64,000 bases of DNA, taken from assembly GCA_050331735.1 (NCBI GenBank), contig JBHJGN010000022.1, positions 64,001 to 128,000 of the forward strand. Reading direction: 5' to 3'. The notes under the pieces are model-generated. The model saw only the letters and a list, made by a program, of their open reading frames with translations. It did not search any database and was not told the origin of the DNA. Shown piece by piece: positions 29,191 through 37,451 of this stretch. Made by a program: the position numbers and the translations under genes. Position 1 is the stretch's first letter. Every line of letters begins with the position of its first letter. This stretch comes from Cyanophyceae cyanobacterium. Its GTDB lineage: Bacteria > Cyanobacteriota > Cyanobacteriia > Cyanobacteriales > JBHJGN01.

Positions 29191-32100
29191 GTGGCTAAAA
29201 GAAGGCGGCGAGGAGTAGTACTGACTCCTGAAGGACTAGACAAGTTTCAGTCTGCCAGACTGAAATCTGAATCAGAACACAACTACGGCGAACGCTACAC
29301 TTACGAGAAGTTGAGCGAAATTACCTATTTAGATATCCACACTATTAAAAGAGTCCTGGATTGTCAAGAAGGAGTAGACAAGCGGACCCTCGAACGACTG
29401 TATATTAGCTTTGAGCTAGAACTCACCGAAGACTGCTACACCCAACCCAACCCCCATCGGCGGAGAAGCTGGGGCGAAGCGATGTGCGTCGCTACTTTTT
29501 ACGGGCGGACTGGGGAGCTATCTATTTTAGAAGGGTGGCTCCTCAAAGACCGCTGCCGAATCGTCACGCTATTAGGCATGGGGGGAGTCGGCAAAACCTG
29601 TTTGTCGGTGAAGCTGGCGAGACAGGTTCAGGAACGGTACGATTTGGTGTACTGGTGTAGTTTGAGAGATGCTCCGCCGGTAGAAGAAGTGCTCATAAAT
29701 GCTGTCGAGTTTCTCTCCGATGAGAAAGAAACAGCCGCAGATTTACCAGATAGCCTCAAGGGCAAGATTTCGCGGCTGATCGAGTATCTGCGGGAATCGC
29801 GCTGTTTGCTGGTGCTAGACAATATGGAGTCGATGCTCTGTAGCGGCAAACGAGCCGGACAGTTTCGCGAGGGGTATGAAGGGTATGGAGAGCTACTGCG
29901 GCGTCTTGGTGAAACCGAGCACCAGAGTAACATTCTGCTGACCTCAAGAGAAAAACCGAAGCAGGTGGCCTTTCTAGAGGGAGAGGAACTGCCTGTGCGG
30001 ACTTTCCGGGTTGGCGGCTTAGCCGAGGAAGCCGGAGAGGAACTGCTCAAGCTCAAGGGATTGTCGGGAACTGAGCCAGAGTATAGAGCTTTGATCGAGC
30101 ACTACGGCGGCAATCCTCTCGCCTTGAAGGTGGTGGCGACGACGATTCGCGATCTGTTTGCCGGAGATATTGGTGACTTTTTAGCCCACGAAACGGCGGT
30201 TTTTGGAGATATCCGTGACCTGTTGGATCAGCAGTTCGAGCGGCTTTCGGATGTTGAGAAGGAGATTGTCTACTGGCTGGCCATTAATCGGGAGTCGTCG
30301 ACCATTGCCGATGTACAGGAAGATATGGTTTCGGCTGTTCCTAAACAGTCTTTGCTAGAGGGGTTGGAGTCGCTATCGCGGCGGTCTTTGGTAGAGCGGG
30401 ATGCCTCGCGGTTTACGCTGCAAAACGTGGTCATGGAGTACGTGATTAACTGTTTTGTGGAGCGGGTTTGCCAGGAGATTGTTTCTTTGCAGCTCAAGTT
30501 ATTTCGCTATCATGCGGTGATTAAAGCGACAGCGAAGGACTACGTGAGGGAAACCCAAACGCGGCTGGTGCTTCAGCCAATTCTGGATGGGTTAACGGTT
30601 TTTTTTAAGTGTAAGCAGAACGTAGAGGGGGGGCTGAATAAGGTTTTATCTCTGTTGCGAGAGGGTCCGCCCTTGGAGATGGGGTATGCCGGGGGGAATG
30701 TGTTGAATTTGCTATGCCATTTAGGGACAGATCTGACAGGCTATGATTTTTCTAATTTGGCCGTGTGGCAGGCGGATTTGCGGTGTGTTTGTTTGCATGA
30801 CGTGAATTTCCAGAATGCGGATTTATCTAAGTCAGCGTTTGCCGAGGCATTTGGTGGGATTTGGTCAGTGGCTTTTAGCCCTGATGGGACGATTTTGGCT
30901 GTGGGAGATACTAAAGGCGAGATTCTTTTACGACAAGTAGAAAACGGTCGGCCAATTTGTAGCTTCAAAGGACACAATGGTTGGGTAGTCTCCCTGGCTT
31001 TTAGTCCTAATAGTAATACTTTGGCAAGTAGTAGCTGTGACTGTACAGCCAAGCTATGGGATATTAACACTGGTCAATGCCTTCATACTTTAAAAGAACA
31101 TACACAAGAAGTCTGGTCTGTGCTCTTTAGTCCCGATAGTAAAACTTTAGTAAGTGGGTGTGATGATAACAAAGTAAGACTATGGGATGTATCTACAGGC
31201 AAATGTTTCAAGGTTTTCCAGGGACATACAGATTGTGTGCTTTCGGTAGTCTTTAATTTAGATGGACGAGAAATACTAAGCGGAAGCCACGATAATACAA
31301 TTAGGCTCTGGGATATTGAGAGTGGGAAGTGCAAAAAAACTTTTCATGGGCACGATGATGGAGTACGATCTCTTGCTGTTAGTTCAGACGGTCAAACTTT
31401 TGCCAGTAGTAGTAACGATTGCACGATTAGACTTTGGAATATACAAACGGGTGAATGCCTCAAAGTTTTTCAGGGGCACACTAATGTAGTATTATCTGTC
31501 GATCTTTGCTTGCAGAGCAGTCTTCTAGCTAGTAGCAGTATCGACCAAACAGTAAGACTGTGGGATGTTGGCACAGGGGAATGTCTAAAAGTTTTTCACG
31601 GGCACTCTAATTACGTTAACTCAGTCGATTTTAGCCCGCAGAACAATTTTTTAGCTAGTGGTAGTCACGATCAGACAGTGCGACTGTGGAATACTAAGAC
31701 TTATCAATGCTTTAAAACTTTTCAGGGACACAACAGTCAAGCTCTTTCAGTTGTTTTCAGTCCAGATGGTCAGATGCTAGCCAGTGGCGGACACGACCAA
31801 AAGGTAAGGCTGTGGGATATTGGTATTGATCGAGCTATTAAAACACTTCACGAACATACCAATTGGGTTTGGTCAGTAGCTTTTAGCCCTCAAGGTAATC
31901 TTTTAGTTAGTGGTAGTGGTGACAGAACTGTAAGATTGTGGAATGTCAGTACGGGAAAGGCCATCAAAATATTTCAGGGTCATCAGGCTGTAGTTCGCTC
32001 AGTTGCTTTTAGTTCTGACAATTGTACCCTAGCCAGTGGTAGCGAAGATAAAACAATTAGACTCTGGGATATTAATACTAGTCAGACTTTAGGAGTTTTG

Positions 32101-32727
32101 CAGGGACATCAAGCTGAAATCTGGTCAATAGCCTTCAGTCCCGATGGCCAAATGTTGGCAAGTAGTTCCTTAGACGGAACGGCAAAGCTATGGGATGTCC
32201 ATACTGGTAGCTGTCTTAAAACTTTGGAAGGACACACAGCTTGGGTTTGGTCAGTAGCTTTTTGTCCAGATAACAAAACTTTAGCAACTACTAGCCCAGA
32301 TCAAACTTTAAGACTTTGGGATGTTGGTACTGGTGAGTGCAAAACAATTTTGCATGAGGATATAGGGTATTCACAGTTAGTTGCTTTTAGTAAAGATGGC
32401 CGGATAATAGCTAGCTGCAACCACAATCACAACATTAGATTGTGGAAGGTTAATACTAAAGAATGCTTCAAGGTATTGCCGGGTCATAAAGCTTTGATCA
32501 ATTCGATTGCATTTTGTCCTGACAATTACACTCTGGTTAGTAGCAGTGAAGATGAAACAATCAAATTCTGGAATATCAGAAGTGGAGACTGTATTAAAAC
32601 TTTGAAGATTGAGAAACCTTACGAAGATATGAATCTTATGGGAGTTACTGGTTTAACTGAAGCAGCCATAGATTCGCTCAAAGAACTCGGAGCAATTAGC
32701 AGCTTGCCAGATATAAGTTCGAAATAG
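29191..32727 (+). CDS. STAND protein: N-terminal HTH-like domain, NB-ARC, C-terminal WD40 repeats
   Basis: FYGR, Walker A GMGGVGKT, Walker B LLVLDN, LLTSRE, GNPLALK, pentapeptide linker, then about 14 GH...WD repeats. Confidence 0.93.
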   Translation: MAKRRRRGVVLTPEGLDKFQSARLKSESEHNYGERYTYEKLSEITYLDIHTIKRVLDCQEGVDKRTLERLYISFELELTEDCYTQPNPHRRRSWGEAMCVATFYGRTGELSILEGWLLKDRCRIVTLLGMGGVGKTCLSVKLARQVQERYDLVYWCSLRDAPPVEEVLINAVEFLSDEKETAADLPDSLKGKISRLIEYLRESRCLLVLDNMESMLCSGKRAGQFREGYEGYGELLRRLGETEHQSNILLTSREKPKQVAFLEGEELPVRTFRVGGLAEEAGEELLKLKGLSGTEPEYRALIEHYGGNPLALKVVATTIRDLFAGDIGDFLAHETAVFGDIRDLLDQQFERLSDVEKEIVYWLAINRESSTIADVQEDMVSAVPKQSLLEGLESLSRRSLVERDASRFTLQNVVMEYVINCFVERVCQEIVSLQLKLFRYHAVIKATAKDYVRETQTRLVLQPILDGLTVFFKCKQNVEGGLNKVLSLLREGPPLEMGYAGGNVLNLLCHLGTDLTGYDFSNLAVWQADLRCVCLHDVNFQNADLSKSAFAEAFGGIWSVAFSPDGTILAVGDTKGEILLRQVENGRPICSFKGHNGWVVSLAFSPNSNTLASSSCDCTAKLWDINTGQCLHTLKEHTQEVWSVLFSPDSKTLVSGCDDNKVRLWDVSTGKCFKVFQGHTDCVLSVVFNLDGREILSGSHDNTIRLWDIESGKCKKTFHGHDDGVRSLAVSSDGQTFASSSNDCTIRLWNIQTGECLKVFQGHTNVVLSVDLCLQSSLLASSSIDQTVRLWDVGTGECLKVFHGHSNYVNSVDFSPQNNFLASGSHDQTVRLWNTKTYQCFKTFQGHNSQALSVVFSPDGQMLASGGHDQKVRLWDIGIDRAIKTLHEHTNWVWSVAFSPQGNLLVSGSGDRTVRLWNVSTGKAIKIFQGHQAVVRSVAFSSDNCTLASGSEDKTIRLWDINTSQTLGVLQGHQAEIWSIAFSPDGQMLASSSLDGTAKLWDVHTGSCLKTLEGHTAWVWSVAFCPDNKTLATTSPDQTLRLWDVGTGECKTILHEDIGYSQLVAFSKDGRIIASCNHNHNIRLWKVNTKECFKVLPGHKALINSIAFCPDNYTLVSSSEDETIKFWNIRSGDCIKTLKIEKPYEDMNLMGVTGLTEAAIDSLKELGAISSLPDISSK

Positions 32728-32764
32728 AGGTTGCAAATTAACAAGATAAGCAAATTACAATAGG

Positions 32765-32800
32765 ATTAAGAGCAGATTCTGTAATACCTGCTCTCAATTG
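32765..32800. terminator. Hairpin between convergent STAND gene and peptide gene
   Basis: GAGCAG...CTGCTC stem flanked by A/T-rich sequence. Confidence 0.45.
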
Positions 32801-32847
32801 TTTGGTTTTTATTACTACGTTACCTGGTTAAGTGTAGTCAAATCTAC

Positions 32848-32991
32848 TCAAAAATAGCAGACAATGTCACTGGTTAGGTCTTGTTTAAACTCCTCAATTA
32901 AGATATCTGCGAGTTCAATTTTAAGTTCTAACTCGTTTAAGACTTCAAAGCTGTTTTCAACGTGCTTGATTTCTGTAGCTGTAGTAATCAT
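32848..32991 (-). CDS. Unannotated 47-aa peptide MITTATEIKHVENSFEVLNELELKIELADILIEEFKQDLTSDIVCYF (candidate RiPP-like precursor)
   Basis: Translated by hand; AAAGGAG RBS about 9 nt upstream of ATG; same strand as and directly downstream of the HDO gene; below the ORF-track length cutoff. Confidence 0.7.
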   Translation of the reverse strand: MITTATEIKHVENSFEVLNELELKIELADILIEEFKQDLTSDIVCYF

Positions 32992-33108
32992 TGCAAAATT
33001 CTCCTTTGGGTTAATTCAGAAAGTAAATTTAAGATTGCTTGAGACCGAATATCTGTTTTATTCGGATGAGGGTGTAATCGCGTAATGCGCACAACGAGCG
33101 TACTTCGC

Positions 33109-34077
33109 CTACAGGCTTTTCTCTAAATTCAGCGGATTCAATCTCTGCTGAATTTCTTCATCTGAGATGTAGCTTTCAGTTGGCGGACTAAAACACAACA
33201 GTGCCGTTTCATAACAGGCTCGCGCTACACGATCGCGCTCTTTGGCAGAAAGCTCTGCTACCATTGCAACTGTCTCTTCTACGTGTTCTGCATCAGCACC
33301 AACACTACTGTGTACGCGCAGGCAGCGGGTAGTATGTACGTTAGCAGGTAGCAAATCCTCTACCTTTTGGATGTACTCCTCGCTAATGCCCATCGCTAGG
33401 CGTTCCATCGTATAGGAATAACCCACACTATCAATTGGGTCATCATCCTGTACGCTACGAGTAAAGTAGTCCATCAAAGCTACCGCAGCAGGAGGGACGA
33501 GTGCTTTCACTACTGCTTCGGCATCGTATCCCAGGGCTTGAATATCGCGGAGAGCAAGCAGATCGTGTCCGGCTTCCTCTTGAGCCTTTTCTCTGGCCCA
33601 CTGTGCCAGTGTAGAGCGACCAGTTAGCGCAAACCGTCGAGCCGCTTTTTGCAACGATGCTGGAACAGAGTGAGTTAAATGATAAGAACCAGCTAAGCGC
33701 CATACCCAGCGCGTTGCTGTCAACGCAGGGGGTCTCACATCTGAATTTACTGCATACTTAGCCGCCGCGATCGCCCCATCTAACAGTTGACGAGTAGTTG
33801 CTACACTTCCGGCCTTTTCCATTGGCTGAGACAGATACAGCAGAGAAGGACTTAGCGGCGGGGTGTTTGCATCTATCTGAAGCAGCCATGCTCGCTCAGC
33901 AGAGGCAACAACAACTTTGTTGGGTGCAATCTTCGCCCATTCTACATCAGGAGAATTAGCGTAATGGGTCGAGAAACCCTCTCTATCGAGTTGAGATGCA
34001 TTGGTTTTATCCAGAGTGAAGGAGACACTCGGATCTCTTTCCCGCTTGTGAGCAGGATGGTTCTGATTAAAGTTCAT
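33109..34077 (-). CDS. Heme-oxygenase-like diiron (HDO / iron-containing redox) enzyme
   Basis: EEAGH, YTMER and VHSSVGADAEH match the E-H-E-H-D-H ligand layout of CADD-like HDO proteins. Confidence 0.75.
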   Translation of the reverse strand: MNFNQNHPAHKRERDPSVSFTLDKTNASQLDREGFSTHYANSPDVEWAKIAPNKVVVASAERAWLLQIDANTPPLSPSLLYLSQPMEKAGSVATTRQLLDGAIAAAKYAVNSDVRPPALTATRWVWRLAGSYHLTHSVPASLQKAARRFALTGRSTLAQWAREKAQEEAGHDLLALRDIQALGYDAEAVVKALVPPAAVALMDYFTRSVQDDDPIDSVGYSYTMERLAMGISEEYIQKVEDLLPANVHTTRCLRVHSSVGADAEHVEETVAMVAELSAKERDRVARACYETALLCFSPPTESYISDEEIQQRLNPLNLEKSL

Positions 34078-34149
34078 AATTCACTTAGAAATTAAATACG
34101 CAGTGGAATTGAAATCGGCATGGCTAACCTTACTAGTGAGAACCTTCGC

Positions 34150-34169
34150 GTTTTGTTGGCAGACAAAAC
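34150..34169. promoter_or_regulatory. Palindromic operator GTTTTGT-TGGCAG-ACAAAAC, copy 1
   Basis: Exact 20-mer, 73 nt from the ATG at 34077. Confidence 0.8.
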
Positions 34170-34356
34170 GATTCCCCATCAGGAATAACCATTACCATTG
34201 ACTCTTTTGCAACCAGGCTTAATTATTTAAGACTGTCAAAAGAGTTTGGTAAACACTCTGCCCAAACGGGCATAGCTTTACCTAACGACCAACTAGCAGG
34301 CTAGCTGGCTTTGGCGATCGCGTTACACTGGCAGGCATAACGTTTTTCAACCAAAT

Positions 34357-35265
34357 CTACGAATTCAGCGTTTTGAGGATGAGCTGAATTTCAAAATCTG
34401 AGACAATATGCTGTCGAGAACGGTTAAAACACAACAGCGCCGTTTCATAGCAGGCTTTCGCCACACAGGTCCGTTCAGCAGCCGTCAGTCCTGCAACCAT
34501 CTCAACGGTTTCTTGAACATCTTCACAATCAATGCCCACGCTTCCGTGCAGCCACGGGCGACTAGCCGCAGCAGGATTGGGCGGCAGCAGTCCTTCGACA
34601 AGCTGGATATACTCTACACCAATTCCGGTGGCAATCCGCTCAATGGTATAAGAATAGCCCACACAGTCAATCGGATTACGGCTTTGGACCCCGAGAGCCA
34701 AATAATTGAGCAAATTATCGGCTTGAGCGGGATGCAATGCTGAGATAACGGCTTCGGCATCGTAGCCTAAGCACTGAATATCTCGTAAAGCCGCTCCATT
34801 GTAATCCTTTTCCCGACTCGCTTTCTGTCTGGCCCAGGTGGCTAAAGACGAGCGATGAGTACTTGCAAAGCGGTGCGCCGCTTCTGCCATTAATGTCGGT
34901 GTTAGGCACGTCAGATGGTAGTGTCCGGCTAGTCGCCAAATCCAGCGCGCCAGCGTTAAATCCGGCAGGATCACGTAAGAATATCGCTGGTAGGCAGCGG
35001 CGATCGCACCATCTAAAAGACTCTGCGTTGAAGCCACACTCCCACTCATGTCCGCCATCGGTTGAGCAAAACGGTCTGAATCGCTCGAACCGTGGGGATA
35101 GAGCCAAACACTACTGGCCGTTGCAACTACTAGAGTTTCTGGTGAAAGTCGTGCCCATTGAGTGTCAAGGGAATTAGCAAGACGCGCCCGAGGAGTCGCT
35201 GCTACCGGTGCAAAGAAGATCCGACTCGGGTCTTCTGGTCCGGCTCGATAGTCGTCATTGTTCAT
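34357..35265 (-). CDS. Paralogous HDO-fold protein with degenerate metal ligands
   Basis: Shares LLDGAIAAA, RWIWRLAGHYHLT, VGYSYTIER, ACYETALLCF with 33109-34077, but EEAGH is REKDY and DAEH is DCED. Confidence 0.75.
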   Translation of the reverse strand: MNNDDYRAGPEDPSRIFFAPVAATPRARLANSLDTQWARLSPETLVVATASSVWLYPHGSSDSDRFAQPMADMSGSVASTQSLLDGAIAAAYQRYSYVILPDLTLARWIWRLAGHYHLTCLTPTLMAEAAHRFASTHRSSLATWARQKASREKDYNGAALRDIQCLGYDAEAVISALHPAQADNLLNYLALGVQSRNPIDCVGYSYTIERIATGIGVEYIQLVEGLLPPNPAAASRPWLHGSVGIDCEDVQETVEMVAGLTAAERTCVAKACYETALLCFNRSRQHIVSDFEIQLILKTLNS

Positions 35266-35337
35266 CGTTATTGACCCAAGAATTCAATACGCTCTATGAG
35301 GAGATGCCAGGAACCGAAGCTAACTTAAAGTGGACTC

Positions 35338-35357
35338 GTTTTGTTGGCAGACAAAAC
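35338..35357. promoter_or_regulatory. Palindromic operator, copy 2
   Basis: Exact 20-mer, 73 nt from the ATG at 35265. Confidence 0.8.
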
Positions 35358-35360
35358 CGC

Positions 35361-35711
35361 TTAAGTTAACGACGTTTCTAGCTTGGCTTCTACCCATTCT
35401 TCGATGAGTTGAGAAAGCACCAACCGCATTGGCACTTGCTCTTGCGTACAGAGGACTTTAAGCTGGACCTTGAGAGACGGAGGCACGTAGGCACTAATCG
35501 TTTCTACGTTGGTCTCCAGGGAGGACTCAGCCTTCTTCAGGGCTGGTTTCTCAGCTTGAAGCCAGTTCCTCAGCAGTTGCTCTAGAATCACGCTCATATT
35601 TAATTCGTGTTGAGCGCAGAGAATCTTAAACTGAAGTTTAAGACGACTAGGAACAGTGGCTTTGACGACAACGCTTTTTTCTCTGTTGTGATACTTCACT
35701 GTTGGTGACAA
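35361..35711 (-). CDS. Tandem ribbon-helix-helix (ParG/CopG-like) DNA-binding protein
   Basis: Internal repeat VKATVPSRLKLQFKILCAQ..MSVILEQLLRNW / ISAYVPPSLKVQLKVLCTQ..MRLVLSQLIEEW. Confidence 0.7.
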   Translation of the reverse strand: MSPTVKYHNREKSVVVKATVPSRLKLQFKILCAQHELNMSVILEQLLRNWLQAEKPALKKAESSLETNVETISAYVPPSLKVQLKVLCTQEQVPMRLVLSQLIEEWVEAKLETSLT

Positions 35712-35967
35712 AAGAATAGAGTGTGAACGTTACTAATTACTATTCAGCACCTTCATCATTTTCACCAGGGAAGTTTTGGGAGATAACTAAAAAAGTTGAC
35801 GCGGGGTGCGGCTGGTGTGTTTGCTAATTTCAACAAGCCAACTGATATCGTTGACGCCACCCTGTTTTTCAGCTACACTAGAAAAAATTAAGTTCGTAAA
35901 AAACTTAAGAATTAAATACGCTTTGTGTCGGGGGCAAACGTCACCTTAGCAATCTCGGTTGAATCAA

Positions 35968-36526: not shown

Positions 36527-36943
36527 CTAGCTTTCCCCTGCCATTCTCCGAATAAATTCCAGCGGTAACCCATCGGTATCGGCGATAAAAGTCACTTCAT
36601 AAACGCGATCGCCAATGAGCTGCTGCGTTGGCTCTAGCAACACCTTCAGCGGCGCTTCGACTCGCGCCTGTAGCTGCTCTAACCACGTTAGCAAATCGTC
36701 TATCTGCTCCGTGACATCAAAAGAAAGATGATAGTATCCCACGTAATGCTCATCACCAAAGGCATCAGGAGCCGGGTGAGGTTCGGGAATTTGGATCAGC
36801 TCAAGGCGTCCCCCGAGCCCCTCTAGCCAGCAGGCCAGAGTATAACCGGCGGTGAAGCGTTCGCAGACCGTGAAACCCAACTGCTCGTAAAAGGCGATCG
36901 CTCGATGAATATCGGCGGTTCGGATCGAGACGTGGTGTAGCAT
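36527..36943 (-). CDS. VOC/glyoxalase-family protein
   Basis: MLHHVSIRT, FYEQLGF, YHLSF, FIADTDGLPLEF; ATG at 36943. Confidence 0.88.
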   Translation of the reverse strand: MLHHVSIRTADIHRAIAFYEQLGFTVCERFTAGYTLACWLEGLGGRLELIQIPEPHPAPDAFGDEHYVGYYHLSFDVTEQIDDLLTWLEQLQARVEAPLKVLLEPTQQLIGDRVYEVTFIADTDGLPLEFIRRMAGES

Positions 36944-36947
36944 TGCT

Positions 36948-37451
36948 CTACTCAAACATCCGGAAGTAGGGATAGCGAACCGGCACTCCTGGCTCTTTTT
37001 CAAGGTCAAAGTTAATCACTTCCCAGCAGGGTTCGTCGGCTGGCTCCGCGCTAAATTCCACCGGAAGACCGTAGAGACGCGGACCCTGCTCGGTCCCTCG
37101 CCAGGGTTTATTTCGGTCTAGATAATCGCCGACCAACTCGCGGTAGCGACTCGCAATAATCACTTTTGTGGCTTTATATCCTTGGGTATAGAGCCGGTCT
37201 AAGGCTTCGTGAATTTCAAAGCGAATTCCGTCTGGGTGCGTATGCTGTCGATACCAGCTCTCTTGCCAGCGTCGCCAGTGCCGCCCAGACTGCAAATGAA
37301 CGAGTTCTTCGGTTCTCGGATCGGCCTCAAAAGCACCGTGACGAGGACACAAATACGTATCGGTGAGTGTTAAAGCGGAAATAAGCTGGCGACAGTGGGG
37401 ACAGCGAATCTCGGGACCAAAGATCGGATAGTGTAAGCTGGGATTCATCAT
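36948..37451 (-). CDS. Conserved cyanobacterial protein (TIGR02652-like, CxxC-x14-CxxH)
   Basis: CPHC...CPRH near the N-terminus, about 170 aa. Confidence 0.8.
   Translation of the reverse strand: MMNPSLHYPIFGPEIRCPHCRQLISALTLTDTYLCPRHGAFEADPRTEELVHLQSGRHWRRWQESWYRQHTHPDGIRFEIHEALDRLYTQGYKATKVIIASRYRELVGDYLDRNKPWRGTEQGPRLYGLPVEFSAEPADEPCWEVINFDLEKEPGVPVRYPYFRMFE

Follow-up and report, generated by a model that had tools for sequence, protein, structure and literature searches.

A small peptide gene conserved beside heme-oxygenase-like diiron oxidases in cyanobacteria, and its candidate role as a RiPP-like substrate

Heme-oxygenase-like enzymes have been described in two peptide pathways that bear on the present work. 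VarO is a heme-oxygenase-like protein encoded in the cluster for thiovarsolin, a peptide ribosomally synthesized and modified post-translationally (RiPP), and in the accessible part of the report the products of a deletion mutant suggested a dehydrogenase role (PMC6511847). MboA, the heme-oxygenase-like diiron oxidase (HDO) that serves as the acetylenase of mangotoxin, is described, in the portion of the paper available, as oxidising the C-terminal residue of a peptide at a 3-His/3-carboxylate diiron site (PMC13185094). Peptide-processing systems coupled to AP-ATPase-repeat proteins have also been predicted in actinobacteria, and the trio of HDO, peptide and STAND protein proposed here mirrors them, as far as the available text of that study goes (PMC7159879). 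This trio is encoded in a 64,000-nucleotide stretch of cyanobacterial DNA (positions 64,001 to 128,000 of contig JBHJGN010000022.1, assembly GCA_050331735.1; hereafter the window, from whose first letter all positions are counted), where a gene for a 47-residue peptide lies next to an HDO gene, HDO1. It is our view, held with some but far from full confidence, that this open reading frame (ORF) is translated, and that the small peptide so produced is a RiPP-like precursor serving the adjacent HDO1 as its dedicated substrate.

The peptide gene occupies positions 32848..32991 of the minus strand, stop included, and according to the ORF listing and its translation consists of 47 codons, the first an ATG, followed by TGA, encoding MITTATEIKHVENSFEVLNELELKIELADILIEEFKQDLTSDIVCYF. 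It is preceded by a Shine-Dalgarno-like AAAGGAG at 33001..33007 (-), whose GGAG ends 9 nt from the ATG, and its product terminates in ...SDIVCYF, with Cys45 and Tyr46 as its sole Cys and Tyr. A preliminary description of this DNA, made from the sequence alone, had reported the frame, the ribosome-binding site and the position of these two residues at the extreme C-terminus, and was right in all three respects. It had also pointed out that its proposal would fall if the frame were not conserved; conservation is in fact extensive. A search of 5.8 billion proteins returned 10 homologues of 45-49 amino acids (59-74% identity, E 2e-11 to 2e-6), and among 1.84 billion representatives at least 143 clusters at 50% identity, nearly all of 38-93 amino acids, match the family profile at E<=1e-3. 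The window peptide itself matches the family hidden Markov model with E 1.2e-27, a value to be read with the fact that the alignment behind the model already contains it. A family ORF lies on the same strand, no more than 1.5 kb downstream of the HDO gene, in 73 of the 79 cyanobacterial loci that encode a relative of HDO1 (these are species representatives and related to one another, so that counts over loci are not independent). Among the six misses, two contigs stop 17 and 71 nt past the HDO gene, three loci have weaker matches (E 0.013-0.079) and one, L092, has none. Of 92 distinct family ORFs, 78 have an in-frame ATG with a Shine-Dalgarno-like motif ahead of it; among all ATG triplets of the same loci the figure is 5.8%. 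When the final 135 nt of 96 ORF cores were compared, neither of the other two sense frames was open in any core, and the three antisense frames were open in 11, 24 and 0. Judged by this comparison of sequences, the peptide ORF is a genuine, widely conserved cyanobacterial small gene tied to HDO genes.

A plus-strand ORF at 32864-33085 (73 amino acids, ATG start), which runs antisense to the peptide gene, was considered as a real gene and rejected as a shadow ORF, because no antisense frame is open in more than 24 of the 96 family cores. No Pfam or NCBIfam model describes the peptide family: among the 61 members scanned, matches were scattered over models with at most three members each (best E 0.0012 in NCBIfam and 0.025 in Pfam), no model was common to the set, and the known RiPP leader and peptide models of these two databases (NHLP, Nif11 and others) gave no curated match. 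With the peptide as the query against 61 genomes (60 relatives of the same order and the window's own, G000), a credible match was obtained in G000 only and all others had E >= 0.065, the query being too short and divergent. A scan of genome contigs with the narrow pattern [AM]TEIKHVE gave 22 matches, none of them confirmed, and it was an HDO-based scan that found the loci instead.

Alignment of 100 distinct family sequences on a conserved Asp, taken as position 0, divides the peptide into a conserved and a variable part. Conserved upstream of the anchor are Leu at -15 (90 sequences), Ile at -12 (83), Glu at -8 (87), Gly at -4 (92) and Leu at -3 (93), with Ser (68) or Asn (30) at -1 and the anchor Asp itself in 93. 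The tail that follows has five residues in 63 sequences and six in 37; it begins with a residue of aliphatic type at +1 (Ile 59, Leu 22, Thr 11, Val 7), is highly variable at +2 to +4 (entropy 2.4-2.9 bits) and ends in a hydrophobic residue (Phe 28, Val 19, Ile 18, Leu 11, Met 7, Trp 7, Tyr 5). Among the independent representatives, 121 of 143 could be anchored, with Asp in 108, Gly in 8 and Glu in 5, and their last residues were chiefly Phe (35), Leu (24), Ile (16), Val (15) and Trp (12). The family thus combines a conserved acidic helix and a G-L-x-[S/N]-D motif with a variable tail of 5-6 residues and a hydrophobic end. A conserved leader region joined to a variable core, in a small ORF beside the gene of a modifying enzyme, is the arrangement of a RiPP precursor, and both features are found here. 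In the window peptide, which is strongly acidic by inspection (11 Asp or Glu, 3 Lys, 1 His), the acidic amphipathic recognition ('leader') region covers residues 13-35 (32887..32955 (-)), with L27, I30, L31 and E34 conserved; residues 16-35 read EVLNELELKIELADILIEEF. It is followed by DLTSD, residues 38-42 (32866..32880 (-)), the window form of the conserved motif with Asp42 as the anchor, and by IVCYF, residues 43-47 (32851..32865 (-)), the variable tail and putative core, marked by high entropy and a hydrophobic last residue and lying wholly in the predicted interface described below.

HDO1 is encoded at 33109..34077 on the minus strand. It has 322 amino acids and matches the Pfam family PF14518 (Haem_oxygenas_2) with 36.8 bits, above the gathering score of 28.9; a weak additional match to the CADD family was also seen. 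The full E-H-E-H-D-H set of putative ligands (E168, H171, E225, H256, D262 and H265), assigned by motif and not from a metal-bound structure, fits the 3-His/3-carboxylate diiron pattern as given for MboA in the available text (PMC13185094). The signature E-H-E-H-[D/E]-H is found in 89 of 95 family frames, and every one of the six exceptions is the upstream member of a tandem HDO pair. Among these is HDO2 of the window (34357..35265 (-)), a paralogue of 302 amino acids and 54% identity to HDO1, which reads E-Y-E-H-D-D, has lost two His ligands and hence the complete set, and has no Pfam match. The other ligand-losing upstream HDOs occur in L022, L023, L024, L027 and L077, and the downstream member always keeps its ligands. 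The recurrence of this pattern in the sequences suggests that the ligand-losing HDO is a non-catalytic paralogue, which may partner the active enzyme. The AlphaFold2 model of HDO1 has a mean predicted local distance difference test (pLDDT) score of 69, with 70-96 in most 10-residue blocks of the core and poor values in the N-terminal 90 residues. Foldseek assigned this model to the heme-oxygenase-like fold, with matches to 3dde (2e-4), UndA (9e-4), TenA, CADD, PolF, HrmI and PqqC; the nearest solved folds, 3dde (of unknown function) and UndA, have 16-22% identity and TM-scores of 0.44-0.60. When the HDO family profile was compared with the PDB by sequence, 3dde alone was significant, and MboA was not (E 0.92). 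The family also has an N-terminal extension of about 90-120 residues, which is predicted to touch the peptide.

Co-folding of HDO1 with the peptide supports their binding, as a prediction. The pair scored 0.65 (0.66, 0.65 and 0.64 in separate runs), and the best control 0.00; such scores express model confidence only. Of reference pairs, 116 of 157 solved complexes and 2 of 215 mismatched pairs attained this mark, these counts being only rough because our own alignments were used. The runs had at least 47% of contacts in common, with a partner pLDDT of at least 59. The contacts of lowest predicted error join Asp42 to Arg123, Trp126 and Arg127, all three of them invariant in the HDO alignment; Asp42 further contacts HDO1 residues 116, 195, 197 and 303, Ser41 lies against residues 294-297, as L27, I30 and L31 do against residues 100-107 and 227/230. 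All of peptide residues 37-47, the whole tail included, are in the predicted interface, which on the enzyme side comprises residues 164, 168, 223-232, 253 and 256-257 and covers the putative ligands E168, E225 and H256. One of these predicted contacts covaries: the anchor is Asp with Arg123/Arg127 in 77 HDO-peptide pairs and Gly with Arg123/Gln127 in 4 (L039, L045, L058 and L098). The covariation of the anchor with HDO position 127 fits the co-fold model and is an independent check on it.

Tandem arrays of the peptide gene were found in ten loci (L036, L052, L072, L045, L046, L037, L054, L035, L028 and L077) and reach 4-6 copies per enzyme gene. Within arrays, copies differ at 0.199 per site in the tails and at 0.119 in the preceding 30 residues, and some array pairs diverge mainly in the tail, such as that of L046, with differences at 5 of 5 tail positions and 2 of 30 leader positions. 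In L052 and L072, 3+3 peptide genes stand between two convergent HDO genes, and L036 has several peptide copies, some of them truncated. A natural in-frame fusion of HDO and peptide, 348 amino acids long with the family motif and tail at its end, occurs at L020:5670-6716 (+) in genome G207; among the 143 representative clusters no fused form was seen, bar two weak longer matches of 146 and 191 amino acids. A sub-family ending in G-L-P-N-G-I-x-N-x-hydrophobic, in which the anchor Asp is replaced by Gly (L045, L039, L058 and L098), stands beside a second HDO type with Gln at 127, and in L045, L039 and L058 this Gly-anchor pair is convergent with a classical HDO-peptide pair. In another, which ends in G-L-P-S-D-T-E-F-x-x (L085-L088, L090, L091, L093, L094, L096 and L099), the open frame continues upstream into a conserved hydrophobic stretch, M.FRILDFGFSILVSLGLG..., which could be a membrane or signal segment, or a conserved spacer that happens to be in frame. 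The N-terminal segment MKTTTATVIDQQ is duplicated inside the peptide at L019:5410-5619 (-) and L081:6817-7026 (+).

Convergent with the peptide gene is a STAND protein gene (29191..32727 (+)), whose 1178-residue product has an XRE-like helix-turn-helix (HTH) N-terminus, an NB-ARC NTPase domain (2.1e-16) and 14 WD40 repeats. Neighbour clustering found a STAND-WD40 protein of about 1172 amino acids in 59 of 80 loci, and where 2.5 kb or more of downstream sequence was available, which was so in 70 loci, the orthologue lies in convergent orientation within 3 kb in 53. An N-terminal domain of about 90 residues is common to all 47 of the 47 full-length orthologues, and five NB-ARC paralogues in G000 match the STAND protein only from residue 68-93 on, leaving this domain unmatched. 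The domain has no Pfam match; it resembles XRE/HTH_3 atlas clusters (0.90-0.92), which is a lead only, and the top Foldseek matches of its model (pLDDT 77.6) are mainly XRE-type HTH proteins (HipB, C.Esp1396I and phage repressors) at a weak E of 0.4-1. The five paralogues are 41-48% identical to the STAND protein over the NTPase region, and three of them lie in frames of just 456-562 amino acids; two of the WD40 repeats of the window protein, at 31453-31689, share 76% DNA identity.

From these observations we infer a substrate role for the peptide, which might be played as follows. The acidic amphipathic helix (about residues 17-35) would act as a recognition leader that docks on the family-specific N-terminal extension of the HDO and the neighbouring helices, and the G-L-x-[S/N]-D motif (DLTSD in the window) would set Asp42 in a clamp formed by Arg123, Trp126 and Arg127, thereby fixing the register. 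The last five residues, IVCYF, would next extend towards the diiron site and be oxidised there in an O2-dependent reaction. Because nothing else in the tail is conserved across the family, the candidates for oxidation are either the aliphatic residue that follows the Asp or the hydrophobic residue at the C-terminus with its carboxylate. Post-translational modification of the tail by HDO1 is a candidate reaction, and its possible chemistries are suggested by precedent rather than by findings made here: decarboxylation of the UndA type, or desaturation or hydroxylation of the MboA/VarO type. The processed peptide would most likely act with the convergent HTH-like/NB-ARC/WD40 STAND protein as its signal or ligand, and not as an exported antibiotic, because genes for processing or export are not conserved whereas this protein is linked to the pair. 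A more specific version, which we offer tentatively and rate as rather improbable as it stands, is that the HDO tailors or oxidatively releases the variable penta- or hexapeptide as the ligand of the WD40 sensor of an XRE-HTH/NB-ARC/WD40 STAND transcription factor, the whole being a hitherto unrecognised cyanobacterial circuit of peptide signalling or self-recognition, comparable to RRNPP quorum sensing and with pherotype-like tails, but made up of an O2/iron-dependent oxidase and a STAND receptor.

The main rival explanation is that the peptide is a small subunit, a chaperone or a pseudo-substrate regulator of an HDO that acts on another molecule. Tight gene pairing, one natural fusion and the extensive predicted interface all suit such a role, and some of the observations that weigh against a substrate and its link to a STAND receptor suit it too: tails are identical within the L036 array and within the minus-strand arrays of L052 and L072, and neither neighbour clustering nor Pfam scans of recurrent neighbours revealed a conserved protease, exporter or immunity gene near the pair. 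Further points against the substrate reading and its STAND link are that the co-fold is silent on whether the peptide is substrate, subunit or inhibitor and on which residue faces the metals, that the four Gly/Gln pairs may form one clade and record a single evolutionary event, that the STAND gene lies elsewhere in the locus in 3 of the 70 loci and is absent from it in 14, that the HTH assignment of its N-terminus comes from weak matches, and that the window peptide, although DLTSD-IVCYF otherwise fits the family, has Asp at -4 where 92 of 100 sequences have Gly, being the only one of the 100 to do so. What the subunit or regulator hypothesis explains poorly is why arrays should reach 4-6 copies per enzyme gene while fused forms are rare, why the most variable segment should be predicted beside the metal-ligand helices, and why differences inside arrays should be focused on the tail; we therefore consider it an unlikely, if serious, competitor. 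As for the leader-core layout of a RiPP precursor claimed in the preliminary description, it is partly upheld, by the conserved recognition region, the variable tail and the arrays of some loci; no conserved protease or exporter accompanies it, and the modification is a proposal.

A second alternative sees in the locus, instead of a transcriptional signalling circuit, a module for conflict or defence built on a STAND protein, as understood by Kaur et al. 2020; the STAND protein would be its sensor or executor, and the processed peptide a toxin or an amplifying signal. In its favour, systems in which peptide processing is coupled to AP-ATPase (NB-ARC) repeat proteins are described in the available part of that work (PMC7159879), the best NCBIfam match of the STAND NTPase region is the TPR protein of the FxSxx-COOH system (FxSxx_TPR), and some loci are on plasmids, namely L052 (Scytonema sp. 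HK-05 plasmid1) and L086 (Chlorogloeopsis fritschii PCC 6912 plasmid p6912-2). That NCBIfam match, however, lies far under its cutoff (55.1 bits as against 300), and PADLOC found no match for HDO1, HDO2, the peptide or the ribbon-helix-helix protein discussed below, the STAND protein matching one model only via residues 807-966 in its WD40 region. Moreover, the N-terminus of the STAND protein resembles, by weak matches, a DNA-binding HTH and not a death or nuclease effector, and the terms TenA, PqqC, diiron and oxygenase do not occur in the accessible text of PMC7159879. A defence role of this kind is accordingly improbable in our judgement.

Still less probable is the view put forward in the preliminary description, that a RiPP precursor is oxidised, cross-linked or oxidatively decarboxylated at its terminal Cys-Tyr-Phe. 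It is true that CYF forms the end of the window peptide and holds its only Cys and Tyr, and that the tail is within the predicted HDO1 interface. Yet when the peptides downstream of HDO homologues were compared, as had been suggested, the terminal CYF proved not to be conserved: of the 100 family tails, 15 contain Cys and 6 contain Tyr, the combination of Cys with an aromatic end occurs once, in the window peptide itself, and none of the 121 anchored representative tails has a Cys-aromatic-aromatic end. This reading is disfavoured because residues absent from almost every member cannot be what a family-wide enzyme reaction relies on. The weakest alternative, a chance ORF or non-coding spacer, could appeal to the shortness of the frame and to the missing Pfam or NCBIfam family, and is negligible because it is contradicted by the comparative data, namely conservation at the protein level, fixed position, fixed length and stop, Shine-Dalgarno motifs and a uniquely, consistently open frame. 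Two further roles for the peptide were considered and rejected, that of a self-sacrificing Tyr donor like CADD, since Tyr is present in just 6 of 100 tails, and that of an MboB-like redox partner, since there is no conserved Cys or His.

Several other features of the window adjoin these genes. Between the convergent peptide and STAND genes, 50 nt past the peptide stop, a 13-bp stem-loop at 32765..32798 (-) may be a terminator (folding z = -3.04 for the region), though it was missed by the consensus terminator scan; over 32600-35900, promoter and terminator scans gave numbers close to those of shuffled sequences (6 vs 3.2 +/- 1.8 and 5 vs 3.1 +/- 2.0), and the spacer between HDO1 and the peptide gene folds no better than shuffles (z -0.53). 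A gene at 35361..35711 (-), upstream of the two HDO genes, encodes a 116-residue protein with two ribbon-helix-helix units (PF21432 at 8.1e-9), which has homologues in 10 of 80 loci and may be a local regulator. Recurrent neighbours in other loci (an AraC regulator, radical SAM, MltA and others) are lineage-specific; a radical SAM gene is present in 10 of 80 loci and was not found among the scanned window ORFs. Further away, a DUF2396 protein gene at 36948-37451 (-) (E 9.9e-88) overlaps the listed TTG start of an ORF of the glyoxalase family at 36527-37009 (-), whose true start probably lies further downstream.

The HDO-peptide locus is widespread, mainly in Pleurocapsales and Nostocales, and its cultured carriers include Xenococcus sp. 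PCC 7305, Chlorogloeopsis fritschii PCC 6912 and Fischerella sp. PCC 9431. Neither the peptide family and its motifs nor an HDO-centred leader-peptide system was found described in the literature searched, which comprised papers outside subscription and without their supplements. Should the substrate role prove true, the class-defining enzyme of this RiPP-like family would be a heme-oxygenase-like diiron oxidase with a leader-recognition surface of its own. The sole HDO tied to ribosomal peptides in the papers searched, as far as their accessible parts go, is VarO, an accessory enzyme (PMC6511847), and the present family would therefore extend the range of HDO chemistry as well as that of RiPP enzymology. 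The linkage to an HTH-like/NB-ARC/WD40 protein also provides a candidate ligand-receptor pair for one bacterial STAND-WD40 family.

It is instructive to set this locus against the known systems that it resembles in part. HDO1 shares the heme-oxygenase-like helical fold of UndA and of PDB 3dde, and UndA, to judge from its PDB entry titles, binds a carboxylate substrate at its iron site for oxidative decarboxylation; unlike either of these, the present family has the extra N-terminal extension of about 90-120 residues. MNIO (DUF692) systems such as MbnBC likewise employ non-heme iron, O2-dependent enzymes on leader-bearing precursors, and often include a non-catalytic partner protein, a parallel to the pair of HDO1 and HDO2; they differ in the fold and family of the enzyme and in their target, which is usually Cys, whereas the tails described here have no invariant residue. 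In RRNPP quorum sensing, a small pro-peptide gene lies beside the gene of an XRE-type HTH receptor with a repeat sensor, and the signal is the variable last 5-8 residues of the pro-peptide; the receptors have TPRs and no NTPase, the pro-peptides carry secretion signals, and no oxidase takes part. A small peptide gene, an HTH-like receptor candidate with a repeat sensor and a variable tail are thus common to both, but the present system does not belong to RRNPP: its receptor candidate has NB-ARC and WD40 domains, and inspection of the peptide, made without a signal-peptide predictor, shows a polar and acidic N-terminus.

The FxSxx-COOH systems, in the part of their description available, also combine a rapidly diverging small protein, whose C-terminal peptide is functional, with a peptide-modifying enzyme and an NB-ARC STAND protein with repeat sensors (PMC7159879). 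There, however, the enzymes are a radical SAM/SPASM protein and a metallopeptidase, the repeats are TPRs, the hosts are actinobacteria and the C-terminal motif is another, whereas here an HDO, WD40 repeats and cyanobacteria are involved; the window tail IVCYF, the family motif G-L-x-[S/N]-D, an FxSxx_TPR score under the cutoff and the lack of a radical SAM gene among the scanned window ORFs all place the locus outside that group. The substrate of MboA, according to the accessible text, is a tripeptide made by a ligase, non-ribosomal and leaderless, and its oxidation requires the reductase MboB (PMC13185094). VarO is, like the enzyme considered here, heme-oxygenase-like, and both would act on a ribosomally made peptide. 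As outlined in the available description, VarO is an accessory enzyme of an actinobacterial YcaO-TfuA thioamide cluster with a repeat-type precursor; here, by contrast, the HDO is the sole conserved enzyme, the putative precursor comes with a recognition helix dedicated to the purpose, and the pair is linked to a STAND protein. What would be new in this locus is therefore a RiPP-like processing of peptides with a new class-defining enzyme and a STAND partner.

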